A stretch of 22,421 nt of DNA. Source: a virus (lineage: Duplodnaviria; Heunggongvirae; Uroviricota; Caudoviricetes). The notes under the pieces were generated by a model. It had not been told where the DNA came from. It was given only the letters and a program-made list of their open reading frames with translations, and did not search any database. The DNA lies in IMG/VR virus record IMGVR_UViG_2724679538_000008, positions 1 to 22,421 of that record; one strand, given 5' to 3'. The translations under genes and the position numbers were made by a program. Shown here one piece after another: positions 2,152-22,421 of this stretch; within the stretch, counting starts at the first letter, position 1; every line of letters starts with the position of its first letter.

Positions 2152-3216
2152 TTAAGTTGATTCCAGACTTCCTTTGGTAAAAGCTTGTATCAGTCTGTTT
2201 GCTGCTGCTTTCTGCGCTGCCACATTGGCAATAACAGATAGTTTTTCCTGGCTGGCTTTCGTGCAGATCCCCGCCCAGTTATCCATCAGAAAAAAATCCT
2301 CTCTTTCTGCAGAGCTGGTAGTTGCACATAGTTTTTCGATCATAGAAGTTATTTCTGCGATGGAATGATTAACCATCATCTGTTGAACCGCAAAACCGAA
2401 AGCGTTAATCATTACTCCATGGAACTGAATATAATCGCGCTTGTACGTAGCGTGGTGTACACCATGTCGGATTGAGTCAATCTGAGTTAGTGTAATCCAT
2501 GCCTCCCAGACAGATTCTATATATCCCATTTCAAGTTGTTGATTGCCGTTCCTAGCGAACTTTGACGTTGCATCAGTGAGTGCCTTGAAACTCACCCACA
2601 TATTACTTTTTAATGGCACTACGTTGTGTTCAAAATCGGTTATATCGGCAAATACAGTATGTTGGGTCAGGAAGGATATCATTCCCTGAGCAATATCATC
2701 CCGGCCGTTATACGCCATATTGATGGTCGCTGATGGCTTAGAAACGTTGTTATTTATGTCCGAAAAGAACTGCTGCCGGGTTTTTAGCGGCAGATTCATT
2801 GTAAGCATCATGGGAACCATGAGTGTTGATGGGGAACTTCGGCAAAATATCTCAATGCCAGCTGCACGATGTTGACCATCAAAAAGTTTTATTTCGGCGT
2901 CGAGGGGAATTCTGGCTATACCAACATTTGTGTTGCCAAACGGTACAAATTCTATATTCGAATCACAGTTACCTACGAGAGGGGGAATGATAAAAGGCTC
3001 ATTTCTTGAGTCTGCGTTAGTGAGATAATTTAAAAATTTTCGTACTCGATTTGGATTAATTTCTCGCTGAGAGCGTTCCAGTGTATGGCCGTAATTATCT
3101 GAAGCGAGGAAACGAGCCAGCGATCTTCCTGGTATGGTAAGGAAGAGTGTAACAGTACCACCCTGTACACCTTGCGATGCCGGAAATTCGAATGAATGAT
3201 TACCAACCTGACTCAT
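2152..3216 (-). CDS. DGQHR-domain protein (DndB/DpdB-like, ParB-like fold family), stand-alone
   Basis: 354-aa ORF containing the literal motif 'KLFDGQHRAAGIE' (DGQHR). Strong SD 'CAGGAGGA' 6 nt upstream of the ATG. The start overlaps the stop of an upstream 54-aa ORF (ATGA). Confidence 0.75.
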   Translation of the reverse strand: MSQVGNHSFEFPASQGVQGGTVTLFLTIPGRSLARFLASDNYGHTLERSQREINPNRVRKFLNYLTNADSRNEPFIIPPLVGNCDSNIEFVPFGNTNVGIARIPLDAEIKLFDGQHRAAGIEIFCRSSPSTLMVPMMLTMNLPLKTRQQFFSDINNNVSKPSATINMAYNGRDDIAQGMISFLTQHTVFADITDFEHNVVPLKSNMWVSFKALTDATSKFARNGNQQLEMGYIESVWEAWITLTQIDSIRHGVHHATYKRDYIQFHGVMINAFGFAVQQMMVNHSIAEITSMIEKLCATTSSAEREDFFLMDNWAGICTKASQEKLSVIANVAAQKAAANRLIQAFTKGSLEST

Positions 3217-5894: not shown

Positions 5895-6743
5895 TTATGC
5901 TGATTTTTTAGTATGTCTACTATTATATTTTTCTAGCAGATCTGCTAACTGATCTTCTTTTGGTGGTCTAGGGAGATTGTTTCTTACATTGCTTCGCTTC
6001 TGAGCTTCAGCTATTCGATCACCAAAGTATCTTTTGAAGATCTCGTATTCTGCACAGTTTTCCGGATCTACATCATAAAATGATAACTTGCCGTAAATTG
6101 CACAAAACCAGTCAGCGCATTGAATTGTTTGGTATAGTTTACTGTCTACTTGTACAGGGGCTTCAAGCAATTGATACTTCTCTTCTTGATGCATTTCATA
6201 GATTGCTTCTTTAACAATCTCGCTTCTCATTTCATGATCGTCCATGAAAATCAAGAATTGAGCATCTTGATTTTTGAACTCATTGTCTAGCCGTTTTATT
6301 ACTTCTTTAAAGCTTGATTTATAAGTTCGTTGAGGGTTATGAGATGCAACACCAATGCGTTTAGCTTCTCCTACGTAGAAAAGAAAGCCGCCATAACGAG
6401 TAATAGTGTTAATTATTCTGTTTGTGCTTCTTGTTAAGTATTTTTTGTACTGTGTTAAATTTTTTACAGAATACTGTTTGGAACCTTTTTTCTCCCAACA
6501 TGACAACTGGAAACGCTCGCCCTTAGCTTGTGCCTTTCTTCTGGCTTCTGGTATGTCATAAGAACCGAACAGTTGTTGCTTATGCTTGAAGAAGAAATGA
6601 GAAAAATCTCTTACTCTATTGGCTGGTAGGACGAATCCACCAAGCCCAAAAACTGGATGTGTATTATGCTGAGGATGTTTCTTGGAAATGTACGGGCCAT
6701 CATGACCAAACTCATCCAAGTAAACTATGAATATATTTGACAT
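5895..6743 (-). CDS. DUF3800-like protein in the rexAB position (downstream of cI, same strand)
   Basis: ORF track 5895..6758; the likely start is the second ATG (6743), preceded by 'GGGGCAAGG', giving 'MSNIFIVYLDEFGHDG...'. The N-terminal '[IV]Y[IL]DE.G' type start is what I recall for DUF3800. AT-rich relative to the flanking lambda genes. Confidence 0.5.
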   Translation of the reverse strand: MSNIFIVYLDEFGHDGPYISKKHPQHNTHPVFGLGGFVLPANRVRDFSHFFFKHKQQLFGSYDIPEARRKAQAKGERFQLSCWEKKGSKQYSVKNLTQYKKYLTRSTNRIINTITRYGGFLFYVGEAKRIGVASHNPQRTYKSSFKEVIKRLDNEFKNQDAQFLIFMDDHEMRSEIVKEAIYEMHQEEKYQLLEAPVQVDSKLYQTIQCADWFCAIYGKLSFYDVDPENCAEYEIFKRYFGDRIAEAQKRSNVRNNLPRPPKEDQLADLLEKYNSRHTKKSA

Positions 6744-6916
6744 TACCTTGCCCCACATACACGGAAGCCCGACTTAAAAAAGCCGGGCCCCGGAATCAGC
6801 AGCAGAAGAAGGTTAAATCTCCCGCCTCTTGTGTTTAAGTATCAGAGAATGTCATCAAAAAGTCAATATGTGTTATGGGAAAATATTACTCAAATACCTC
6901 ATCAGAACACGGCTGA

Positions 6917-7606
6917 TTATCCGTGTTTCCTATACGTCTGCGGCATACTGCCAATAACCTTCCCGAAGATAAACACTCGGTTCATCTCGTCTTTCTCGAT
7001 CGGGTCCCACGGTGAGTAGCTCTTGTTATCAGAGATGACCAGCAGCTTATCCTTCATCATTTGCAGGCGCTTTACATGGGCTGTGTCGTCGTACAGAAAC
7101 GCATAGATACCATCACCGTCGAAAGATTTAACAGTGATATCAACGAACAGCAGATCACCTGGTTCGATCGTTCCTGACATGCTGTCACCACGCACGTTAA
7201 TGATGCGGATATTTTCCGCCTTCCTACCATCGAACATGTGACGAGCATCGTCAAATGAGTACTCAACCGAGCGTAGAACTTCTACAAACTCACGGTTGAT
7301 GACTCCCGGCCCAGCACTGACTTCTATATCAAGAACGTCAATCTTGAAGTATTTGGAATGGCTGACAGTTGATTGTATTGGTTGCACTGTACTGTCTGAC
7401 ATATTTCCAACGCCAGAAGATAACCATTCTGCGCGCACACCCAAAGCGTTCGCGATCTCCACGATTTTAGTTGTTTGGTTAGCTTTCCCTGTTTCGATTT
7501 TCTGAATAGCAGCCTGGCTAACCCCAACCAAATCCCCAAGTGCCTTTTGTGTAAGGCCTCGCGCTAATCTGGCTTCTTTAAGTCTTTCTGAGAGTGTTGT
7601 TTTCAT
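6917..7606 (-). CDS. cI: CI-like prophage repressor (HTH_XRE N-domain + S24/LexA-like peptidase C-domain)
   Basis: 'MKTTLSERLKEARLARGLTQKALGDLVGVSQAAIQKIETGK' HTH followed by a C-terminal region with '...VRGDSMSGTIEPGDLLFVD...' (S24 Ser/Lys autocleavage-type domain). ORF track starts at 7672; the Met at 7606 gives the canonical N-terminus. Divergent from the cro-like gene. Confidence 0.85.
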   Translation of the reverse strand: MKTTLSERLKEARLARGLTQKALGDLVGVSQAAIQKIETGKANQTTKIVEIANALGVRAEWLSSGVGNMSDSTVQPIQSTVSHSKYFKIDVLDIEVSAGPGVINREFVEVLRSVEYSFDDARHMFDGRKAENIRIINVRGDSMSGTIEPGDLLFVDITVKSFDGDGIYAFLYDDTAHVKRLQMMKDKLLVISDNKSYSPWDPIEKDEMNRVFIFGKVIGSMPQTYRKHG

Positions 7607-7647
7607 AGACCAAATGTACAACCAAGGTTTTATTCCATCAAACGAAA

Positions 7648-7672
7648 ATGGTTGTTGACTAAAAACAACCAT
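7648..7672. promoter_or_regulatory. OR-type operator palindrome within the cI-cro divergent promoter region
   Basis: Perfect inverted repeat ATGGTTGTT-gactaaa-AACAACCAT. It overlaps a TTGACT -35-like hexamer (7652-7657) facing cro. A further GGTTGTT lies at 7704-7710, next to the cro RBS. Confidence 0.55.
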
Positions 7673-10276: not shown

Positions 10277-10560
10277 CGGGCAAAGAGGCAATTATTCATT
10301 ACCTGGGGACTCATAAGAACTTCTGTGCGCAGGACGTTGCCGCGGTAACAGGCGCAACCGTAACCAGCATAAATCAGGCTGCGGCTAAAATGGCGCGGGC
10401 AGGAATCCTGGTCGTTGATGGTAAGGTCTGGCGAACGGTGTATTATCGGTTCGCTACCAGAGAAGAATGGGAAGGAAAGGTGAGCACGAATTTGATTTTT
10501 AAGGAGTGTCGTCAAAGTGCCGCGATGAAGCGGGTGTTGGCTTTATATGGAAGAGAGTAG
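10273..10560 (+). CDS. ren: Ren (Rex-exclusion protein)
   Basis: 95-aa protein matching lambda Ren ('MTGKEAIIHYLGTHKNFCAQDVAAVTGATVTSINQAAAKMARAGILVVDGKVWRTVYYRFATREE...'). Start overlaps the P stop. Confidence 0.93.
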   Translation: MTGKEAIIHYLGTHKNFCAQDVAAVTGATVTSINQAAAKMARAGILVVDGKVWRTVYYRFATREEWEGKVSTNLIFKECRQSAAMKRVLALYGRE

Positions 10561-10624
10561 GTATGAGCAATTATTGTTACTAATTTTAGTTTTACGACAT
10601 TCGTGATAACTAAATAATTGATGT

Positions 10625-10879
10625 GTGGAACTGAATTATAAAGGGGATGATGTTTTGGGAAATAAAGAAAATATCGATTGTAAGCACACAAGAAGTTCAT
10701 GCTATAAAAACAAGCAGATGAAAGATGTTATTTATATTACATTGCCTAAACTCACTGAAGAAGAAGTAGAGATTTTTAAGGGACCAATGCATAAAGCATT
10801 GCTTGCAGGGATAAATGTTACAAAAAAGGCAGTTTCTGATGCCCTGCTAAACAAAGGGATAAAAGTTGAATTTAAATAG
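10625..10879 (+). CDS. Small AT-rich hypothetical protein (up to 84 aa; start uncertain)
   Basis: ORF in an AT-rich insertion right after ren. Candidate starts are GTG 10625 or ATG 10718 ('MKDVIYITLPKLTEEEVEIFKGPMHKALLAGINVTKKAVSDALLNKGIKVEFK'). Convergent with the 472-aa gene; no family recognised. Confidence 0.35.
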   Translation: MELNYKGDDVLGNKENIDCKHTRSSCYKNKQMKDVIYITLPKLTEEEVEIFKGPMHKALLAGINVTKKAVSDALLNKGIKVEFK

Positions 10880-10896
10880 AGTAATTCAGTGGCAAC

Positions 10897-10922
10897 AATA
10901 GCACTCATTTGTGAGTGCTATT
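10897..10922. terminator. Perfect 11-bp-stem hairpin between convergent genes (putative bidirectional terminator)
   Basis: AATAGCACTCA-tttg-TGAGTGCTATT, placed between the stops of the 84-aa (+) and 472-aa (-) ORFs. Flanks are A/T-rich on both sides. Confidence 0.5.
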
Positions 10923-10930
10923 GAAATTTA

Positions 10931-12349
10931 TTAGAAAATAATGTTTGCTATATCCGAGATAGCATTTAAAGAACCTCTGTGGTCACTTCCTGTTTTAGGT
11001 AAAATATAGGAATATCGAGGGTCTTCATTATATGTTAACTTCCAGTGTTTTCCATCGCTTGACGCACTGAAACCTAAGTCCTTTAAATTTCTTTGTGTTG
11101 CGCTATCCATGCTTCTGTAACCTGTTAAAGTCCTTTTAAGTAATTGGCGGCGACTCTCGGTTTCTTTATTGTATTCATTATTGGCAATTAGGGATGATAA
11201 GATATGGTAGCTTCTACCAAATTCATTTTTATTTTTTATGGCAGTTTTTAGTGCGTCAATAATTATATTTTTGATTTCTCCATCAAAAAAGTCAGTCTCT
11301 TCACCAGCATTAAGCACAATGCTTCCTTGGGCTGAAGCTTGTGATTGAAGAGTGCGTACTCTGTGCTCTAAAGAGGAGATCTTATGCTTAAGATCTTCTA
11401 TTTGGTCATCTTTCGCAACATTATCGGCTTCGTAAAGCGCCATCAGTTCGCGTGTGTATTCTCCTCTTTCTTTGAGTGAGTTAATAGAGTCTTTCGTTTT
11501 TCTGGTTTGTATCTCACTCCATCCACTATCTGAGACAGGAGCCATTGTAGTCGTAGCTCTTACAACATCATCAAATAACTCATCTTCAAATTCTTTTGCG
11601 GTTTTCTCACCACGGCGATAAAAACTGATATTTTGACCCCGTGGCCAATAGATACCAACAGCACCAGCATAGGCATTTTTAGCATTTGTCTCATTTTTTA
11701 GCTTAATAGAAAATAGTCTATTGCTAGGCTCAATTAATACATGTGCTAATCCGCATACCTTTCTTGCAAGGCGTTCTGGGATGATATTGTGAGCATGTTC
11801 ATTAAAAAAATACTTGGAGCTAACGTATATTATTGGTAGTCTGTTGTCAGTTTCACCATTTATAACTTTAGCTGCTATATTTAAATGTTCATCAGTATCA
11901 TCTAAGGAATGAGGTTCGACTGACACCTTGAAAATATCATCAAGACCACCAGAAAATTTATCAATCAATCTCATAACAACTAATGGTTTCTTAGGTTGCG
12001 GGGCTAGATAAGCTGCATCTTGGCTTACAACGCTAGATTCCACCTGAATCCACATGGTATCAGTTTTGAGATTTTTATTAATTGAAATATCTGTTACCCA
12101 TTTGTGTGGCTCAGATATTTTCGAATACCTAAAACAGCCTAAACTAGTATCTTTGTTTTTATAAGTTATTATATCAATTCTTTCATTTTTAGACTCTATG
12201 AAGTACTCCTCGCTTTTATAATCACATACTAATTGTGCTGGAATAAAAGTTGTATGTGGTGAGTCGTTTACCCAAGAAAAACATTCATTAAAGATCTCAG
12301 CTAGAGATGTGGAGTTTGAAACATAAAAACCAGTTGAGAAATATTTCAT
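10931..12349 (-). CDS. Large orphan protein (472 aa), AT-rich, no recognisable domain
   Basis: Long uninterrupted ORF on the strand opposite to the early-right operon. Visibly lower GC than the flanking lambda genes. Central predicted coiled-coil ('ELMALYEADNVAKDDQIEDLKHKISSLEHRVRTLQSQ'). No Walker A or other motif I can name. Confidence 0.7.
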   Translation of the reverse strand: MKYFSTGFYVSNSTSLAEIFNECFSWVNDSPHTTFIPAQLVCDYKSEEYFIESKNERIDIITYKNKDTSLGCFRYSKISEPHKWVTDISINKNLKTDTMWIQVESSVVSQDAAYLAPQPKKPLVVMRLIDKFSGGLDDIFKVSVEPHSLDDTDEHLNIAAKVINGETDNRLPIIYVSSKYFFNEHAHNIIPERLARKVCGLAHVLIEPSNRLFSIKLKNETNAKNAYAGAVGIYWPRGQNISFYRRGEKTAKEFEDELFDDVVRATTTMAPVSDSGWSEIQTRKTKDSINSLKERGEYTRELMALYEADNVAKDDQIEDLKHKISSLEHRVRTLQSQASAQGSIVLNAGEETDFFDGEIKNIIIDALKTAIKNKNEFGRSYHILSSLIANNEYNKETESRRQLLKRTLTGYRSMDSATQRNLKDLGFSASSDGKHWKLTYNEDPRYSYILPKTGSDHRGSLNAISDIANIIF

Positions 12350-12463
12350 GAAATTTCCTTATTAAAAATGAGATTAATCTCATTGGCTATGATAATTGTT
12401 ACCCTCCTTTGGATCTAGTGTTCATTTGACATAAGAACCTATTGATTCATCATAATCAACTCG

Positions 12464-12588
12464 CCATAATCATGTCATCGGAGCCTGAACAACTCCGGTG
12501 ACTTCTGCGCTAAACGGGGACGTTTATGCGCACACACAATCCAAACTCTCATCTCCATTCACAGATGCAGAAATGCACCTACGATTTT
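12464..12588 (+). repeat. Direct repeat, copy 1 (~125 bp; partner at 14397-14520)
   Basis: Aligns by eye with 14397-14520 with about 8 mismatches. It includes a 48-bp identical core 'GAACAACTCCGGTGACTTCTGCGCTAAACGGGGACGTTTATGCGCACA' (12486-12533 = 14420-14467). Confidence 0.8.
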
Positions 12589-13008
12589 TACATTCGGTGT
12601 TTTACTTCGACAGCCAGAATTGGGAGTCTCTATTCGTCTGGCGGCTAAAGGTGATATGGAAATCGTTATGTTTTGGCCTGAGGTAGTTGTAACTGTTGTA
12701 GCAGCTATGGCTGTGATCATCATGGTGTCCATTTACTGGGGTTGACGACATGATTTATCCGGCGCTATATTCTGTGCGTTGCCGCAAAATCGGCACACGG
12801 GATTGGCGTCCCGGGATACTACTCAACGCATACCGCGTTAAGCGGTTTTTTTGTGCGCTAAGCACGGCTATGCCCAAATTATGGTGGGCTGTGTGAGGGC
12901 TTCTTCGGAAGCGCCGGGTTTGAGTAGCCGGTTACGCCAACCTTACACAGTTCACCACCAGTCGATTGGCGTCGTTGGTGGTGATGGTTAACCTGATGAG
13001 GTGATACT

Positions 13009-13617
13009 ATGACTACTCAATTAGCATTCCACAAAACGACGTTTACCCCGATTTGCCACAATAACAGAATTTGGCTTACTGCCACTGAAGTTGGTTTAGC
13101 ACTGGAATATGCGGACGATAAAGCAGTTCAGCGTATTTACTCTCGGCACTCAGATGAATTCACAGATATGATGACAAGGGTGGTCAAAGTGACCACCCCT
13201 CGTGGAATGCAGGAGTCTCGAGTATTTAGCCTTCGCGGAGCCCATTTGATCGCCATGTTTGCTCGTACTCCTGTGGCCAAAGAATTCCGCCGCTGGGTTC
13301 TGGATATTCTCGATCGAGAAGTTCAACAATCCCCAATCACAAAACAATTCACTGATAACGAACTTTGCACACTCGCCTGGTTATGGCGAGCAAGTGATAC
13401 GATGTTAACCGCCTGCCAGAACGTTACGCCCCTTCTTCAGGTCGCAGAGCATCGCGAAGCAGGTAGATTCACTTCAATCGAACAAGAATATCCTCGGATA
13501 CTCAACAGGGCGCGAGAAATCCTTGCCAGAGAAACGGCGCATGTAAAATTCCAACCGTGGCAGGATGATAAGTGGAGTCGTGTGTTACCATATTTCCGTC
13601 AGAATCTGTTGCAATAA
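13009..13617 (+). CDS. Bro-N domain antirepressor-like protein
   Basis: 202-aa ORF; the N-terminal half 'IWLTATEVGLALEYADDKAVQRIYSRHSDEF...ESRVFSLRGAHLIAMFARTPVAKEFRRWVLDILDRE' follows the Bro-N pattern (W..A.DV...L.Y ... E..V.SL.G...I..AR.P.AK.FR.WV). Has its own upstream promoter-like element. Confidence 0.6.
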   Translation: MTTQLAFHKTTFTPICHNNRIWLTATEVGLALEYADDKAVQRIYSRHSDEFTDMMTRVVKVTTPRGMQESRVFSLRGAHLIAMFARTPVAKEFRRWVLDILDREVQQSPITKQFTDNELCTLAWLWRASDTMLTACQNVTPLLQVAEHREAGRFTSIEQEYPRILNRAREILARETAHVKFQPWQDDKWSRVLPYFRQNLLQ

Positions 13618-13852
13618 AGTCACTCGTTAGAAATACTGCCAGCATTCTGCGATGACGGAAGTGCTGGCATTTTTTTTGGTAATGTGCGAGTCCATTTCAT
13701 AAAATACGGGTACTGGAACTGGACGATATAATCTAAAAGATACCATTATCAGTAGCATTAAAATCGCTATGTGCCGATACGGATATAAATTATATTGATT
13801 GTTCACATACCTTATTGGATATTACTGAGGGGTGTTTATATAAGGTGTAACG

Positions 13853-14362
13853 ATGATGTGGAACTTTGACAGTGCCGACTTAAGTGCAATAGCAGCAGGC
13901 ATTTCTGCGTTTGGCACATTAGCCGCAGCGGGGTCGGCGCTTGCAAGTTGGTACACGTCAAAAAAAGCGCTGCAGCTACAAAATAGAGTTTACCTTTATG
14001 AGTCTTTAAAGGCTTGCGCTGAGAGAGCCAATTCATTAGCTAAAGATAAGCGCGGATCTGAATGGAGCGTTAATGATGCAGCGGATATCATCAGGTGCCT
14101 AGTACGGGCGATGGAGATCATCAAGCAGGATAGCCAGCAGAAAGAAGGTAATCAGGCATTAATGTTGAAACAGTACTTTGTTAATCTGCTAATAATGGAA
14201 CTGTACGAGGAAGTTCATAACGGTGATGCGGCTGATTCTGTTTTTAAAAGTACGGAACCTACACAAGTACTTGATAACTTATGGAGCAAATGGCAGGAGG
14301 CTATAGCTTTTTTTGATATTTGGAATTACCCAGTTGCGACTGAGGAAGACTTGGCAGACTAA
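13853..14362 (+). CDS. Hypothetical protein with N-terminal hydrophobic (membrane-anchor-like) segment
   Basis: 169-aa ORF; residues ~10-35 'LSAIAAGISAFGTLAAAGSALASWY' are hydrophobic; the remainder is acidic and helical. No family recognised. Lies inside the repeat-flanked cassette. Confidence 0.5.
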   Translation: MMWNFDSADLSAIAAGISAFGTLAAAGSALASWYTSKKALQLQNRVYLYESLKACAERANSLAKDKRGSEWSVNDAADIIRCLVRAMEIIKQDSQQKEGNQALMLKQYFVNLLIMELYEEVHNGDAADSVFKSTEPTQVLDNLWSKWQEAIAFFDIWNYPVATEEDLAD

Positions 14363-14396
14363 TTTTCAGCACATTTGATTTCCAATAATCAACCAG

Positions 14397-14520
14397 CCAT
14401 AATCATGCCATTGGAGCTTGAACAACTCCGGTGACTTCTGCGCTAAACGGGGACGTTTATGCGCACATACAATCCAAACTCTCTTCTCCCTTCACAGATG
14501 CAGAGATGCACCTGCGATTT
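14397..14520 (+). repeat. Direct repeat, copy 2 (immediately upstream of ninB)
   Basis: See copy 1. This copy is contiguous with the ninB RBS (GGAGG at 14546-14550) and GTG start. Confidence 0.8.
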
Positions 14521-14556
14521 TTTGCATCCAGCGTTTGACCTCTGCGGAGGTGAAGC

Positions 14557-15961: not shown

Positions 15962-16046
15962 AGTCAGAGATAACAATCAACTAATACTGTTTTGTTGATT
16001 TTTGCTTGTAATTGGCGTTCTGGTCTGAGTTTTGTGGAGTAAGTTG

Positions 16047-16424
16047 ATGCGTGATATTCAGATGGTTCTTGAGCGTTGGGGAGCGTGGGCGGCTAATAAT
16101 CATGAAGATGTGACCTGGTCGTCCATTGCCGCCGGTTTTAAGGGATTAATTCCTTCAAAAGTAAAATCTCGCCCACAATGTTGTGACGATGACGCGATGA
16201 TCATTTGCGGGTGCATGGCCCGTCTGAAAAAGAACAACAGCGATTTGCATGATTTATTGGTGGACTATTATGTCGGCGGCATGACTTTTATGGCGCTTGC
16301 ACGTAAGCATGGGCGATCTGATTGTTGGGTTGGCAGGATGCTCCAGAAAGCTGAGGGCGTAGTGGAGGGTATGCTGATGGTGTTGGATCTCCGATTGGAG
16401 ATGGATGCTGATTGTTCGAAATAA
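16047..16424 (+). CDS. Q: Late-gene antiterminator Q (QuuD/phage 82-type)
   Basis: '[81 protein letters not shown]...' matches DLP12 QuuD-type Q as recalled. GGAG lies 7 nt upstream of the ATG at 16047 (ORF track begins at a TTG at 16032). Confidence 0.85.
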
Positions 16425-16578: not shown

Positions 16579-17103
16579 TTATTGTTTAACCCATAATAAT
16601 TCATTGACATTGAATCCCAACTTTTGAGCGGTTCGCACATAGTCTGCTTTTACTTTATCTGGAATAGTTGGGGTCCTTGCCAGAATCCATAGGTATTCTC
16701 TGTTCGGACCACTGACAAGAGCATACTTATACTCATCATCCAGTTTGATTACATTATAGCCACCATAGAAGGGGCCAAAAAACGAAACCTTCAACGCTGC
16801 AGTTTTAGTATCTCCAGTAAAGTATGCTTTACCTTCGCTCTCGCTCCATTTATTTTTCGTTGGATCGTATCCACGGTTAAGTACACGAATCCCTCCGTCG
16901 TTCCGTTTTCCATAAGTAGCGCTGACCTGTTCCAGACCACGTTCGAACCGGTTCTCGAGGCGAGCTATTTCATACCATTTTCCGAGGTAGCGGTTGGCGT
17001 CAAAATTTGTAATCGGCTGCACACCTTTAGGTGGTGTCGGGGCCTTACATGCTATAAGAGTGAAAGAGAGTGCAATGCCAGTCAACACAGGCCATAACTT
17101 CAT
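16579..17103 (-). CDS. Bacterial lipocalin (Blc-like outer-membrane lipoprotein)
   Basis: 174-aa protein with signal peptide and lipobox 'LIAC'. 'FDANRYLGKWYEIARLENRFERGLEQVSATY...GKAYFTGDTKTAALKVSFFGPFYGGYNVIKLD...YLWILARTPT' closely parallels E. coli Blc. Confidence 0.85.
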   Translation of the reverse strand: MKLWPVLTGIALSFTLIACKAPTPPKGVQPITNFDANRYLGKWYEIARLENRFERGLEQVSATYGKRNDGGIRVLNRGYDPTKNKWSESEGKAYFTGDTKTAALKVSFFGPFYGGYNVIKLDDEYKYALVSGPNREYLWILARTPTIPDKVKADYVRTAQKLGFNVNELLWVKQ

Positions 17104-17295
17104 AATAAATCCTGTACTTTTGATAGTTGAGAGTAAGTATGAAAGATAGATGATTACGACCGATCACTTAAAGAACTTTCATACTATATTAGGAATAGTC
17201 CATAACAGAAAAATTGTCAGTGATGACGCCAGAAAGGCAATTTATTCCGTGCACTACACAGTTTATGTGTTAATGAATTAGTCAAGGGGGAGAAT

Positions 17296-18255
17296 ATGAT
17301 AAAAAAACCTGTGATTGGAATCAGCGGTTGTTTGGCCGGTTCTGCTGTTCGTTTTGATGGTGGTCACAAAAGAGCTGACTTTTTAATGGACAAATTAGTG
17401 GAATGGGTAACATTCAGACCAGTATGTCCAGAAATGGCTATAGGGCTGCCAGTTCCGCGTCCTGCTCTACGTCTTGTGCGCTCGACGCAAGGAAATATAC
17501 GGATGTGTTTCAGCCACGACCAGAATGAGGATGTGACAGAGAGAATGACAGAGTTTAGTCGTTCTTATATGGACAAATTAAAGGATGTATCGGGGTTTGT
17601 GGTTTGTGCTAAATCTCCCAGCTGTGGCATGGAGCGCGTGCGTGTCTATGATGAAAATGGTAATCGAGGTCGTAAAGATGGAGTGGGACTATTTACGAGC
17701 ACTTTGATGGAAAAGTTTTCCTGGCTACCGGTTGAAGAGGATGGGCGATTACATGATCCAGTGCTTCGTGAGAATTTTGTTGAAAGAGTTTTTGCTTTGC
17801 ATGAGCTCAATCATCTTTACAAGGAGAAATTATCAAGAAGAGAGTTATTAGCTTTTCATAGTCGTTATAAGCTTCAGTTATTGGCGCATAGTCAGGCAGG
17901 CTATAAAGATATGGGACCATTTGTGGCTGCAATACACGAGTGGGCGGACCTTGAATCATACTTTGAGGTGTATCGTGATAAGCTGATGGCGATTCTCAGA
18001 AAACCTGCATCACGTAAAAATCACACGAATGTGCTGATGCATATACAGGGGTATTTTAGTAACTACTTAAGTACACGCCAGCGTAAAGAGTTGAGCGAGG
18101 TTATACTTAACTATCGTTCTGGCACATTACCTCTTCTTGCGCCGTTGACTCTGCTGAAGCATTATCTGGGTGAGTATCCTAATGATTACTTGCTTACACA
18201 GAATTACTTCGATCCCTATCCGGACGAACTGGCTCTAAGACTGATGGTAAATTAA
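17296..18255 (+). CDS. DUF523 (TudS/YbgA-like, Cys-rich) + DUF1722 two-domain protein
   Basis: N-terminus 'KPVIGISGCLAGSAVRFDGGHKRADFL...PVCPE...CAKSPSCGME' resembles YbgA/DUF523, which I recall as the TudS 4Fe-4S thiouracil desulfidase family. The C-terminal helical half is consistent with DUF1722. SD 'AAGGGGGAG' upstream. Confidence 0.6.
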   Translation: MIKKPVIGISGCLAGSAVRFDGGHKRADFLMDKLVEWVTFRPVCPEMAIGLPVPRPALRLVRSTQGNIRMCFSHDQNEDVTERMTEFSRSYMDKLKDVSGFVVCAKSPSCGMERVRVYDENGNRGRKDGVGLFTSTLMEKFSWLPVEEDGRLHDPVLRENFVERVFALHELNHLYKEKLSRRELLAFHSRYKLQLLAHSQAGYKDMGPFVAAIHEWADLESYFEVYRDKLMAILRKPASRKNHTNVLMHIQGYFSNYLSTRQRKELSEVILNYRSGTLPLLAPLTLLKHYLGEYPNDYLLTQNYFDPYPDELALRLMVN

Positions 18256-18604
18256 TTGTATGCGATATCATCCAAAAGGATAAGTTCCTGCATGCAGGAT
18301 ATTTACAATCGTAAAAACTACACTATGATACCCAGAGTGTCAGTTTGTATAAAAACTCTGTTTACGCTGAAGAAACCATTGAGATGCAACTTAAAGTTGG
18401 TAAACATGCCAGTCAAAATATAATATTATGATTCCACGCAGCTATATATAATATAACAGATTGGTTTAATAATTTGTCTTTGTGAGTTAAATACATAATT
18501 TTATACTTGTGATGCAATGAGATTTTCCTTATTGTTGAACTGGCGAATATTGATTTTCCACCTATACTTACCTGGTGTAACCCCAATGATATCAGGTGGA
18601 TAAT

Positions 18605-19336
18605 ATGCCATACATATGTTCTATCATTTTGGTGTTGAACTCGTTTGATGCCCGAATTGGTAAAGAAGATATTTTGTTTAAAAAAGGAAGTGCTGTTCTC
18701 ATTGATTACAATTTAAAAGATTTTTTTTCATCAAATATAGATCATGTAATGATCGTAGATGTTGAAGAGAAAACAGTTAATGATTTCTTTAAAAGCAACA
18801 CACTCTCACCTTTTTCTGTAAGAAGGTTTTATCCGGCATACTTGATGGTGGAATGTGAAGATTTTTCATTGTTAAAGAACTTGATTGCATGCTTGAATTG
18901 TGATGGCAGAACTGTGGATTTTGTTAGAAATCAAATATCACTTGCATGTCTTGCTATCTTATCTTCAGAGAAAATAGTGCAAAGTTTTTTATTTGGATGT
19001 CTTAATAGTTTAGGAAGTAAAGTTAAGGCTATTATTCACACGGATATATCTGCAGCATGGAGACTTTGTGATATATCTTCAAGACTGTATCTGAGTGAAA
19101 GTCTGTTAAAAAGAAAATTAAAGCACGAAGGCTTATCATTTAGTAAGTTAATTCTTGAAGAGCGAATGGTGATGGCGGAAAGGTTATTAAGCTACAATTT
19201 ATATTCTGTTGGAAAAGTTGCTAAGATATGCGGTTATGAAAATACGTCATATTTTGTAAGTGTTTTCAGAAGATATTTTGGTGTTCCTCCCCATCAATAT
19301 TCATCAAGATTTTTTTTAGAAAAAGACATGATGTAA
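18605..19336 (+). CDS. AraC-family transcriptional regulator (AppY/GadX-like architecture)
   Basis: C-terminal AraC HTH 'WRLCDISSRLYLSESLLKRKLKHEGLSFSKLILEERMVMAERLLSYNLYSVGKVAKICGYENTSYFVSVFRRYFGVPPHQY'. Very AT-rich gene. 'AGGTGGA' lies upstream of the ATG at 18605. Confidence 0.8.
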   Translation: MPYICSIILVLNSFDARIGKEDILFKKGSAVLIDYNLKDFFSSNIDHVMIVDVEEKTVNDFFKSNTLSPFSVRRFYPAYLMVECEDFSLLKNLIACLNCDGRTVDFVRNQISLACLAILSSEKIVQSFLFGCLNSLGSKVKAIIHTDISAAWRLCDISSRLYLSESLLKRKLKHEGLSFSKLILEERMVMAERLLSYNLYSVGKVAKICGYENTSYFVSVFRRYFGVPPHQYSSRFFLEKDMM

Positions 19337-19524: not shown

Positions 19525-19740
19525 ATGAAATCCATGGATAAGTTAACAACGGGCATTGCCTACGGCACCTCCGCAGGCAGTGCTGGCTACTGGTTTTTAC
19601 AGCTGCTCGATAAAGTCACGCCCTCACAGTGGGCAGCAATAGGTGTGCTGGGTAGCTTGGTATTTGGCCTGCTGACGTACCTGACAAACCTTTATTTCAA
19701 GATTAAAGAAGATAAGCGCAAGGCTGCGAGAGGTGAATAA
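19525..19740 (+). CDS. S: Class II holin, phage 21 S-type pinholin (dual start)
   Basis: 71-aa protein '[71 protein letters not shown]' with two TMDs and the Met1-Lys2-Ser3-Met4 dual-start motif. GGAGGTGAGG SD. Confidence 0.9.
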
Positions 19741-20237
19741 TGCCTCCATCATTACGAAAAGCCGTTGCTGCTGCTATTGGTGGCGGAGCAATTGCTATAG
19801 CATCAGTGTTAATCACTGGCCCAAGTGGTAACGATGGTCTGGAAGGTGTCAGCTACATACCATACAAAGATATTGTTGGTGTATGGACTGTATGTCACGG
19901 GCATACAGGAAAAGACATCATGCTCGGTAAAACGTATACCAAAGCAGAATGCAAAGCCCTCCTGAATAAAGACCTTGCCACTGTCGCCAGACAAATTAAC
20001 CCGTACATCAAAGTCGATATACCGGAAACAACGCGCGGCGCTCTTTACTCGTTCGTCTACAACGTGGGTGCTGGCAATTTCAGAACATCGACGCTTCTTC
20101 GCAAAATAAACCAGGGTGATATCAAAGGCGCATGTGATCAGCTACGGCGCTGGACATACGCTGGCGGTAAGCAATGGAAAGGTCTCATGACTCGTCGTGA
20201 GATTGAGCGTGAAATCTGTTTGTGGGGTCAGCAATGA
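19740..20237 (+). CDS. R: SAR endolysin (phage 21 R-type lysozyme)
   Basis: N-terminal Gly/Ala-rich signal-anchor-release segment '[20 protein letters not shown]' followed by a lysozyme domain ('...[26 protein letters not shown]...'). Start overlaps the holin stop (TAATG). Confidence 0.9.
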
Positions 20238-20692
20238 ACAGAGTAACCGCGATTATCTCCGCTCTGGTTATCTGCATCATCGTCTGCCTGTCATGGGCTG
20301 TTAATCATTACCGTGATAACGCAATCGCCTACAAAGAGCAGCGCGATAACAAGGCCAGTGAACTGGAGAAGGCGAACGCCACCATCGCTGACATGCGGAA
20401 GCGTCAACGTGATGTAGCAGAACTCGACGCAAGATACACAAAGGAGCTTGCTGATGCTAACGCGACTATCGAAAGTCTCCGTGCTGATGTTTCTGCTGGG
20501 CGTAAGCGCCTGCAAGTCGCCGCCACCTGTGCAAAGTCAACGACCGGAGCCAGCGGCATGGGCGATGGAGAAAGCCCAAGACTTACAGCAGATGCTGAAC
20601 TCAATTATTACCGTCTACGAAGTGGAATCGACAGGATAACCGCGCAGGTTAACTACCTGCAGGAGTACATTAGGACGCAGTGCTTAAAATAA
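20234..20692 (+). CDS. Rz: Rz inner-membrane spanin (i-spanin)
   Basis: ATG overlapping the R stop (ATGA). N-terminal TMD '[20 protein letters not shown]' then a coiled-coil periplasmic domain. Contains an embedded +1-frame lipoprotein ORF. Confidence 0.85.
20454..20639 (+). CDS. Rz1: Rz1 outer-membrane lipoprotein spanin (o-spanin), embedded in Rz in the +1 frame
   Basis: '[33 protein letters not shown]...' has a signal peptide, lipobox VSAC and a Pro-rich mature part. AAGGAG lies 7 nt upstream of the ATG. Lies entirely within Rz. Confidence 0.75.
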
Positions 20693-20758: not shown

Positions 20759-20901
20759 ATGTCCGCAGTAAACGCGCATCTCACGCGCATATTAACGAGA
20801 GCCTTTCAGTAAGCGGGCCTGAGAATTGCCGTTATAGGTGGCGACCTCTCTCGGGCGGCTTTTCTGTGAGACAGGCTCACTTTCTAAAAGGTAAAGACGC
20901 T

Positions 20902-21390
20902 ATGAACCAATTAGAAGAAAAGCTTCAAAGAATGATTTCCTTATACAAGGAAGATAACTGCCAAAAAGTTCCTGAAAACATCGCAGAGTTAATGGAATTG
21001 GCAAGTGAATTTTCTGGCATGCTTAAGTCGTCAGATGTTCGGTCAGCGTTCTTTGTTGAAATGCTGATGCACGGCGGACTTATGGCAACAATGAGACGTG
21101 TAATGGAAGACCAGAGAAAAGAACCTCCTCAGGTATACGTTTTGTCATCGAAGAAAACTGGGCTAACCAAAATTGGGTATTCATCCAACATTCCACAACG
21201 CATCAAATCGCTTGGCAACTCTGGACCAGACTGTTTGAAGCTTGAGTGCCTGATCCCTGGTGGAAGAGAAACTGAAAACATGCTTCATCGCAAATTTGCC
21301 GCAAAGAGAAAGCACGGTGAATGGTTCGCCCTGTCCAAGGATGACATTGAGGGGTTGAAATCTGTAGCGCTTACTTCTGATGGCTATTAA
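20902..21390 (+). CDS. T5orf172-like (GIY-YIG-related) domain protein with uncharacterised N-terminal region
   Basis: C-terminal half 'VYVLSSKKTGLTKIGYSSNIPQRIKSLGNSGPDCLKLECLIPGGRETENMLHRKFAAKRKHGEWFALSKDDIEGL' fits the T5orf172 pattern (VY.L......KIG.S.N...R...L.....L.L.........E..LH..F...R..GEWF.L). ATG at 20902 is preceded by AAAGG (ORF track begins at a GTG at 20866). Confidence 0.6.
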   Translation: MNQLEEKLQRMISLYKEDNCQKVPENIAELMELASEFSGMLKSSDVRSAFFVEMLMHGGLMATMRRVMEDQRKEPPQVYVLSSKKTGLTKIGYSSNIPQRIKSLGNSGPDCLKLECLIPGGRETENMLHRKFAAKRKHGEWFALSKDDIEGLKSVALTSDGY

Positions 21391-22010: not shown

Positions 22011-22421
22011 TTAGTGCGGAAATATTTGTGTAGTGTTCTGAATGTTCTCAGTAAAGAGTAATGAATTATCAAAGGTATAGTAATATCTTTTTTGTTCGTG
22101 GATATTTGTAACCCACCGAAAAACTCCTGCTTTAGCAAGGTTTCTTCTGTATTCCTGAAATGTGATCTCTCTGGATTTCAGCTTATTAGAGGTCGTTTCT
22201 ATAAGATGCCTATCCTTTGAAAATTTGACAGACACAATGTTTTTTAGGCCCTTTAATAACACTGTATTATCATTTTTTAATACAATATGAACATTCTCTG
22301 TGGCTAAATAGTAAATGTAATGTGAGACATTGTGACGTTTTAGCTCAGAATAAAACCATTGATAGTTTAAATCGTTTCGAACTTTATCAAATATTTGTTT
22401 AAAAATGACTACCTGATCCAT
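22011..22421 (-). CDS. Hypothetical AT-rich protein (136 aa), possibly DLP12 YbcV-like
   Basis: Complete ORF whose ATG is at the window edge; very AT-rich. Size, orientation and position after the lysis genes resemble DLP12 ybcV; this is a memory-based call that is not verifiable here. Confidence 0.45.

Follow-up and report, generated by a model that had tools for sequence, protein, structure and literature searches.

A virus genome of the class Caudoviricetes (IMG/VR record IMGVR_UViG_2724679538_000008, analysed over its whole stretch of 22,421 nucleotides, here called the window) raises the question of what a gene encoding a protein of 472 residues is doing in a block of AT-rich DNA between the lambdoid genes ren and ninB. 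As the original prediction had described from the sequence, the open reading frame (ORF) runs against the early-right operon that surrounds it and is accompanied by a small convergent ORF of 84 residues. The same prediction regarded the 472-residue protein as an orphan without a recognisable motif and suspected a defence moron. The analysis presented here gives the protein relatives and an architecture: the 472-residue family is a sister of the candidate defence protein HEC-07 in which the effector has been swapped to a HicA-type domain. The reading that we favour, as probable though well short of secure, is that of a prophage-borne single-chain sensor-effector, an autoinhibited sensor-RNase that would act through abortive infection. 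The gene and the domains predicted in its product are the following.

10931 to 12349, minus strand: the gene for the 472-residue protein, from the ORF list; as a functional unit, a HEC-07-related sensor module with a HicA-like C-terminal domain
11957 to 12349, minus strand: residues 1-131, N-terminal alpha/beta domain (strand, helix, five antiparallel strands, helix)
11540 to 11947, minus strand: residues ~135-270, thioredoxin-like domain without CxxC, carrying the motif G200-x-A202-H203-V204 and E207
11339 to 11521, minus strand: residues 277-337, two long coiled-coil-like helices in the AlphaFold2 model, with the motif ELxxLYExDN in common with HEC-07
11126 to 11278, minus strand: residues 358-408, three-helix linker region with the invariant E358 and R379 and no alignment to HEC-07
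10934 to 11104, minus strand: residues 416-472, HicA-like alpha-beta-beta-beta-alpha domain, the predicted RNase effector

With the base composition of the insert, a frame that stays open for 472 codons has a chance probability of ~2e-16. Moreover, the description of the protein as an orphan does not hold. A word-indexed search returned 75 relatives of 466-482 residues from Enterobacterales, Pseudomonas, Stutzerimonas and Caulobacter, all of them annotated as 'hypothetical', and an exhaustive profile search returned 3,473 representative clusters at E ≤ 0.001, with 1,038 at E ≤ 1e-30. The best 150 of the 3,473 clusters have nearly all one architecture of ~460-480 residues, and among the matches listed there are two architectures only, of ~470 and ~550 residues. 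No name for the family was found in the family libraries scanned, the Pfam and NCBIfam scans of the protein gave coiled-coil noise only, and a literature search for its RefSeq accessions returned none.

An alignment of 42 sequences contains 19 columns that are invariant in the family. These are W26 and S30 in the N-terminal domain, where W84 and T86 are near-invariant; D137, P172, G200, A202, H203, E207, G229 and P236 in the middle domain; E351, E358 and R379 between the middle and the C-terminal domains; and G426, F427, H435, D443, R445 and Y446 at the C-terminus, with His435 (codon at 11045-11047) present in 42 of 42 sequences. The AlphaFold2 model of the whole protein, built on this alignment, has a mean predicted local distance difference test (pLDDT) score of 83. 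For the N-terminal domain, a HicB-like identity was considered, but the strand order in the model gives no hint of it. The central coiled-coil that had been proposed earlier corresponds to a pair of long helices predicted at residues 277-295 and 300-337, and the Pfam coiled-coil matches are only weak. These helices probably mediate dimerisation.

HEC-07 (Hma-embedded candidate 07; WP_033943166.1, 549 residues) comes from Pseudomonas aeruginosa NCTC13717, where it was found inside Hma defence systems, and it is among the seven of nine tested candidates that are reported to reduce phage plaquing in E. coli (10.1101/2024.01.29.577857). The same authors describe an RNase of the RelE family, with a conserved histidine, at its C-terminus, and besides this an AdoMetDC-like and a thioredoxin-like domain, the latter lacking CxxC (10.1101/2024.01.29.577857). 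A search for literature on HEC-07 found none besides this preprint by Payne et al.; the sequence was taken from its Table S2 and from the protein database. The PADLOC models for HEC-07 are PDLC04158-04161 (PADLOC-DB v2). The HEC-07 model matches the 472-residue protein with an E-value of 1e-9 and 35.8 bits, over residues 83-334 and profile positions 107-366 of 553, and is the sole significant library match for the whole protein; it also matches four distant family members. For comparison, genuine HEC-07 scores 739.9 bits on the PADLOC model, over positions 6-553.

Furthermore, a comparison with hhalign of the family profile with full-length HEC-07 gave a probability of 95% and an E-value of 4e-8 over 226 columns, with residues 82-320 placed on HEC-07 residues 102-350; the helices of residues 277-337 align to HEC-07 residues 320-350. 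In a joint alignment, W26, W84, T86 and P122 correspond to W48, W104, T106 and P140 of HEC-07, and D137, P146, G200, A202, H203 and V204 to D155, P163, G216, A218, H219 and V220. On these alignments, residues 82-320 are homologous to HEC-07, and the related part as a whole, with its redox-dead thioredoxin-like domain, extends over residues ~1-340. With regard to the last ~130 residues, there is no alignment to HEC-07, which ends in '...FRLYFFWDDESQIVVVGWLPSH' with a RelE-type pattern (...FRLYFFWDDE...VVVGWLPSH).

The two proteins thus resemble each other in the order of their parts, since in each an alpha/beta domain at the N-terminus precedes a thioredoxin-like domain that lacks CxxC, long helices come next, and the C-terminus is a small RNase-toxin-type fold. 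Like HEC-07, the 472-residue protein appears as a single-gene system with no conserved neighbour, the family being found in eight different contexts. However, the two are only ~18% identical and differ in length (472 residues here, 549 in HEC-07), and the full-length, high-scoring match to the model is not reached by the 472-residue protein. The C-terminal RelE-family RNase with the conserved histidine H543 is found only in HEC-07, whereas the protein discussed here has a HicA-like end. In addition, HEC-07 is embedded in Hma systems, while members of the 472-residue family are cargo of prophages, islands or integrative and conjugative elements (ICEs). The protein is filed under neither HEC-07 nor HicA because it fails the full-length HEC-07 match, lacks the RelE-type effector and does not reach the Pfam HicA threshold.

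The C-terminal sequence of the 472-residue protein is 'LGFSASSDGKHWKLTYNEDPRYSYILPKTGSDHRGSLNAISDIANIIF'. Its last 68 residues were also modelled on their own, with a pLDDT of 82. In a Foldseek search with the C-terminal domain, HicA accounted for 7 of the top 11 matches, with probabilities up to 0.95 and no E-value below 0.1; HicA structures are the best structural matches by two methods, and RelE is not the best by either. Pfam HicA_toxin is the family most frequently matched by the C-termini of the family (7 of 27, best E-value 0.0048, under the gathering score), and for the window protein itself no Pfam HicA match was found at E ≤ 1. An hhalign comparison with E. coli HicA, the sequence of which was checked against PDB 6HPB, gave an E-value of 5.5e-5 and a probability of 66%, and placed His435 opposite HicA His23, which we take to be the catalytic histidine. 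A profile of the C-terminal domain searched against PDB sequences returned no HicA match, the best being an unrelated protein solved by nuclear magnetic resonance (NMR; E-value 0.023).

PHROG 2053, a phage family of 72-residue proteins of unknown function, matches all 27 C-termini (best E-value 1.6e-15), and PHROGs labelled 'toxin' match 13 and 6 of the 27. Residues 405-472 (10934-11137, minus strand) thus have free-standing phage homologues through PHROG 2053, yet a tblastn search with the C-terminal 68 residues against 50,697 phage records gave no match at E ≤ 1. The small PHROG 2053 proteins may be toxins, or decoys or inhibitors of the 472-residue family.

Several features are shared with HicA toxins (PF07927; 6HPB from E. 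coli, 6G26 from B. pseudomallei, 5YRZ from S. pneumoniae), namely the alpha-beta-beta-beta-alpha fold of ~55 residues, which resembles a double-stranded RNA-binding domain (dsRBD), and the G-x-H-x-K-L strand, in which a histidine occupies the place that His23 has in HicA, where strand beta-2 starts. In contrast to HicA, the domain is the C-terminal part of a 472-residue protein with no adjacent HicB gene, none having been seen next to the homologues in the contexts examined; the similarity falls under the Pfam gathering score, and the additional invariant motifs D443-x-R445-Y446 and 'PKTGSD.RG' are atypical of HicA. Taken together, the lines of evidence, each weak or moderate but concordant, point to a C-terminal domain that is HicA-like and not RelE-like. 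The earlier statement that the protein carries no recognisable motif accordingly gives way to a HicA-like domain found through profiles and structure.

The modest structure and sequence scores to HicA also leave some room for a different view of this domain, as a non-catalytic, dsRBD-like module binding nucleic acid or protein, with the decisive site elsewhere, for instance at His203/Glu207; in that case one would expect a regulator, or else defence by another chemistry. The G-x-A-H-V motif is the strongest in common with HEC-07 and is kept although the C-terminal domains differ, which is in favour of such a view. Nevertheless, His435, opposite the HicA catalytic histidine, is invariant in all 42 sequences, as are G426, F427, D443, R445 and Y446, and HEC-07 has another RNase toxin fold at the same position, because of which the C-terminus can be regarded as an effector slot. 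A non-catalytic C-terminal module consequently seems improbable to us.

Proteins in which a HicA domain is fused to a larger partner have been described. Gerdes lists fused HicA classes 11-14, of which class 13 comprises proteins of 340-440 residues with a helical N-terminus and a C-terminal HicA, and class 14 has an SMC-like N-terminal region (10.1101/2023.12.08.570793). The 472-residue protein is like these, and like class 13 in particular, in being monocistronic and in having its HicA-type domain at the C-terminus, after a longer N-terminal part; the fused HicA proteins, too, are proposed to be cis-regulated, CapRel-like defence proteins (10.1101/2023.12.08.570793). It differs from class 13 in its length of 472 residues and in its N-terminal 270 residues, which form a beta-rich domain and a thioredoxin-like domain and are not predominantly helical. 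As far as the text of that source shows, the order alpha/beta, thioredoxin-like, HicA is not among its 14 contexts, classes 13 and 14 being the closest (10.1101/2023.12.08.570793).

On the reading of the protein as a sensor-RNase, the gene would be transcribed independently in the lysogen, against the lytic operon, from leftward signals of its own (a putative promoter at 12478-12449, a palindrome and a Shine-Dalgarno sequence). The N-terminal module would keep the HicA-like RNase inactive in cis, by analogy with fused toxin-antitoxins such as CapRel, and a cue from a superinfecting phage would free it. The freed RNase would then cleave mRNA, so that translation stops and the infection aborts, and the lysogen population would be protected. 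CapRel(SJ46) offers a mechanistic analogy only: as summarised by Gerdes, it is a prophage-borne single polypeptide in which a non-toxic domain both inhibits the toxin and senses infection (10.1101/2023.12.08.570793). There is no sequence or fold relationship between the two, and CapRel is a tRNA pyrophosphokinase and not an RNase.

The idea of a defence moron is therefore retained as the best reading, because the sensor half is homologous to HEC-07, a protein reported to reduce plaquing. A number of points weigh against it. A dsRBD-like fold is able to bind RNA without cutting it. Members of the family score 15-41 bits on the HEC-07 model and in its middle region only, which is a partial match, and some homologues, such as that of Pectobacterium, lie among ordinary metabolic genes. 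The trigger, the promoter and the autoinhibitory contact are hypothetical, and the defence role of the family is extrapolated. Additionally, the defence data for HEC-07 come from one preprint and concern a protein that is ~18% identical (10.1101/2024.01.29.577857), and the mechanism is not simply transferable from HEC-07 because the effector differs.

The surroundings of the homologues bear on the question of what the gene does for the DNA that carries it. Besides the prophage of the window, the family was found in the following places.

E. coli/Salmonella version, 77% identical: last gene of an integrase and DUF927 island, at two chromosomal sites
Dickeya homologue: reverse-oriented cargo among ICE conjugation genes
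Pseudomonas donghuensis homologue: abuts a prophage integrase
Pseudomonas brassicacearum homologue: among Fic/YhfG, HipA-like and BrnA genes
Distant metagenomic relative: adjoins genes for Schlafen-type ATPases and Fic-like, radical-SAM, AAA-trypsin and Hsp70 proteins
Caulobacter homologue: adjoins uvrB and genes for small regulators of the helix-turn-helix (HTH) type
Pectobacterium homologue: among ordinary metabolic genes

The family member is a lone gene in every context examined, and at the DNA level the window and the island version are homologous in the ORF only. At the loci of two Pseudomonas species (L009 6126-7845 and L024 7094-8813), a HipA_C kinase-like gene and a gene of ~247 codons with a weak HIRAN match precede the homologue, and this pair may be a conserved neighbouring system. 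The content of guanine and cytosine (GC) of the 472-residue gene is 34-36% in enterics, 42% in Pseudomonas and 44% in Caulobacter, so that it is AT-rich in every host.

Copies are present in 35 of 5,426 complete E. coli genomes, of which 24 have the prophage allele, 7 the island allele and 4 a partial copy. The original prediction had named interruption of the frame with no signature of selection as a finding that would speak against it; instead, the prophage copies are full length in 24 of 24 cases, and the E. coli alleles differ by 12-13 synonymous and 4 nonsynonymous changes, with a ratio of nonsynonymous to synonymous substitution rates (dN/dS) of ~0.08. Among more distant homologues the synonymous sites are saturated, with a proportion of nonsynonymous differences (pN) of 0.15-0.49. 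The gene is also intact in prophages with a truncated ybcN, a frameshift in ren or an IS66 element interrupting the replication (O) gene. The 472-residue gene is under purifying selection and travels alone on many kinds of mobile element.

These data bear on two further explanations. An ordinary housekeeping or structural gene of the phage, or a functionless, decaying remnant, might be supposed from a position inside a prophage and an annotation as 'hypothetical protein' only. Such an origin is contradicted by the distribution and selection data, as the gene is absent from the 50,697 phage records, is present in only 24 of the E. coli genomes with matches to the flanks (~3,000), occurs outside phages in an ICE and in islands, is under strong purifying selection and is full length in every prophage copy; of the alternatives weighed here it is the least credible.

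A fused, self-contained toxin-antitoxin gene, which would stabilise its mobile element by addiction with the N-terminal part as a cis-antitoxin, agrees better with a gene that is solo, always on mobile or island DNA and kept in decaying prophages, and fused HicA proteins of unknown role have been described (10.1101/2023.12.08.570793). Conversely, post-segregational killing relies on differential stability, for which a single polypeptide has no obvious mechanism; the homology of the sensor half is to a reported phage-blocking protein; and many fused toxin-antitoxins have, according to the same survey, proved to be defence systems (10.1101/2023.12.08.570793). Addiction as the role of the gene therefore appears unlikely, albeit deserving of some weight, and the roles in addiction and in defence are not mutually exclusive.

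The insert that carries the gene is delimited by composition and by the ends of similarity to lambdoid prophages.

10561 to 12441, no strand: AT-rich cargo module A, 34.6% GC, delimited by composition and by the ends of similarity to lambdoid prophages
12442 to 12589, no strand: copy 1 of a 148-nt junction, the right border of the insert, which precedes ninB/ybcN in thousands of E. coli prophages

The insert is ~1.88 kb long and lies between ren and the conserved junction that precedes ninB. Its GC content of 34.6% over 10561-12441 compares with 50.6% in the left flank, 46.4% in the right flank and 44.8% in the whole window. Similarity to other lambdoid prophages ends at ~10540-10564, at the 3' end of ren, and restarts at ~12432-12442, so that composition and similarity agree on the ~1.9 kb AT-rich insertion after ren that had first been placed at 10561-12440. 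The 148-nt junction (12442-12589) is usually found upstream of a 33-codon ORF and ybcN/ninB. The flanks are present in 3,008 of the 5,426 genomes and the whole insert in 24, and a megablast search of the insert against the 50,697 phage records gave matches confined to the flanks. In the strains TK3896 and LR-50, the host prophage is located at tRNA-Thr beside proA.

A survey of the ren/ninB slot, which had been suggested as a check, showed that other genes occupy it in related prophages: phage PhiR30_1 has an acyltransferase and a lipoprotein there, an O8:H8 strain has two small ORFs, and DLP12 of E. coli K-12 has emrE-ylcJ-ybcK-ybcL-ybcM. The lambdoid moron slot of DLP12 has the ren 3' end and the 148-nt pre-ybcN junction in common with the window, and its cargo is unrelated; it differs from the slot of the window, which holds one reverse-oriented defence-type gene and has a duplicated junction with a second module behind it. 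The marks of a moron in a variable slot were all found, with conserved flanks, unrelated alternative cargo, a deviant GC content and signals of its own (Shine-Dalgarno sequence, promoter-like site and hairpin). This AT-rich DNA is thus a cargo ('moron') module of foreign origin, seated in the variable slot that lambdoid prophages have between ren and ninB, as its foreign composition had led the original prediction to propose.

The local signals and the small ORF of the insert are as follows.

12449 to 12478, minus strand: best sigma-70-like site by consensus scan (10/12), ATGACA, 18-nt spacer, TATGAT, within the junction repeat
12367 to 12384, no strand: perfect 18-nt palindrome AATGAGATTAATCTCATT in the 5' leader of the 472-residue gene, read from the sequence
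12356 to 12360, minus strand: Shine-Dalgarno sequence AAGGA, 6 nt upstream of the ATG of the 472-residue gene, read from the sequence
10896 to 10923, no strand: perfect hairpin with a 12-bp stem and a 4-nt loop between the convergent ORFs
10625 to 10879, plus strand: the 84-residue ORF from the ORF list, with a GTG start and an alternative reading of 53 residues from ATG 10720

The sigma-70-like site at 12449-12478 could be the promoter of the 472-residue gene. The palindrome AATGAGATTAATCTCATT lies between this promoter-like site and the Shine-Dalgarno sequence and is absent upstream of the homologues; it is possibly an operator or a leader hairpin. The hairpin at 10896-10923 begins 7 nt past the stop codon of the 472-residue gene and 16 nt past that of the 84-residue ORF. 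Its free energy is -17 kcal/mol on either strand (z-scores -3.7 and -4.6; none of 200 shuffled sequences as stable), and ~0.02 stems of this kind are expected by chance in the window. A perfect palindrome had been reported earlier at 10897-10922 with an 11-bp stem; the hairpin exists and is perfect, but its stem is of 12 bp and it spans 10896-10923. The claim that it terminates both genes is only partly supported, because the terminator scan flags it on the plus strand only, where it is canonical, and the minus strand is without a T-run. Homologues elsewhere each have an unrelated hairpin of their own just past the stop codon.

With regard to the 84-residue ORF, the remote-homology searches that the original prediction had proposed gave the HEC-07 relationship and the HicA-like domain for the larger protein and nothing for the smaller one, which has no match in four family libraries and none in Pfam at E ≤ 1. 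Among 5.8 billion proteins it has four near-identical clusters only. Its annotated length varies between 84, 88 and 53 residues, and its alleles differ by an in-frame indel of 12 nt that immediately precedes the internal ATG; over the last 53 codons they have 3 nonsynonymous and 0 synonymous differences, with no sign of purifying selection. The label 'phospholipase D-like domain-containing', attached to one RefSeq record (WP_143359959.1, E. coli MB20, L002 3226-3480), is regarded as unreliable, as neither Pfam, NCBIfam nor homology was found to support it; the other RefSeq records of this ORF read 'hypothetical protein'.

That the two ORFs might together form a two-gene toxin-antitoxin or defence pair is suggested by their convergent arrangement around a common hairpin and by the small ORF, which accompanies the module in each of its 24 E. 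coli prophage copies. However, it has no homologue outside the module and is absent beside all homologues of the 472-residue gene examined in other contexts; it has no library match, an ambiguous start, and alleles with an indel and only nonsynonymous changes at the 3' end. Moreover, convergent genes are not co-transcribed. A toxin/antitoxin pair, which had been raised as something to check, is unlikely because the 84-residue ORF is not co-conserved and shows no sign of purifying selection, and we give a two-gene system of either kind very little credence. We regard the 84-residue ORF as doubtful and local, perhaps a remnant, and not as a partner of the 472-residue gene; both it and the hairpin are, we infer, features local to the module and outside the system.

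The second module in the ren-ninB slot consists of the following.

14375 to 14522, no strand: copy 2 of the 148-nt junction, 91% identical to copy 1
13009 to 13617: antirepressor-like gene with Bro-N and P22AR_C
13853 to 14362: orphan of 169 residues

The two junction copies form a direct repeat that brackets this second cargo module (12590-14374). Two modules are therefore stacked in the slot, an arrangement that suggests exchange of modules by recombination at the junction.

Other parts of the window also hold cargo-like genes. A DUF3800 gene of 287 codons (5895-6758, minus strand) lies between an S24/HTH cI-like repressor (6917-7672) and the early-left genes, a position that we take to be the rexAB-type slot; in related prophages the same slot holds a DUF7946 gene or two small ORFs, and PADLOC gave no match to the DUF3800 protein. 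In the early-left arm there is a solo DndB-like gene of 354 codons (2152-3216, minus strand; Pfam DndB E-value 3.8e-46, PADLOC DndB E-value 4e-37), and no other dnd genes were found in the window. Three cargo-like genes lie within 16579-19336, between the antiterminator Q (16032-16424) and the lysozyme/Rz genes (19740-20692), encoding a lipocalin (16579-17103, minus strand), a DUF1722/2-thiouracil-desulfurase protein (17296-18255) and an AraC-type regulator (18596-19336); the region between Q and the lysis genes is the stx position in Stx phages. A gene of 174 codons with a T5orf172/MUG113 domain follows Rz (20866-21390), and a DUF1398 gene is found at the right end of the window (22011-22421, minus strand).

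With the sensor-RNase reading of the 472-residue protein, a large family that is annotated only as 'hypothetical protein' gains a concrete hypothesis for its role, that of a single-chain sensor-RNase in defence, and two separate literatures, on the HEC-07 candidate system and on fused HicA toxins, are joined. The advance is a modest one, as it extends a known pattern and the design principle is familiar. The HicA-type branch is missing from Pfam, from NCBIfam and, as a full match, from PADLOC. A wider reading, which we offer as possible and hold more tentatively than the role of the single protein, is that a reusable scaffold for sensing infection may consist of the alpha/beta domain, the thioredoxin-like domain with G-x-A-H-V and the coiled coil, and that it would have been coupled to at least two unrelated RNase toxins, RelE in HEC-07 and HicA here, with the HicA branch far commoner (>1,000 clusters at E ≤ 1e-30); the pocket of His203/Glu207 might read the phage cue, and the prophage copies might give superinfection immunity in E. 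coli. The natural swap of effectors, RelE against HicA on one sensor scaffold, would provide a handle for splitting sensing from killing. Finally, the ren-ninB slot of lambdoid prophages holds defence-type cargo, and the duplicated 148-nt junction may allow modules to be stacked there.

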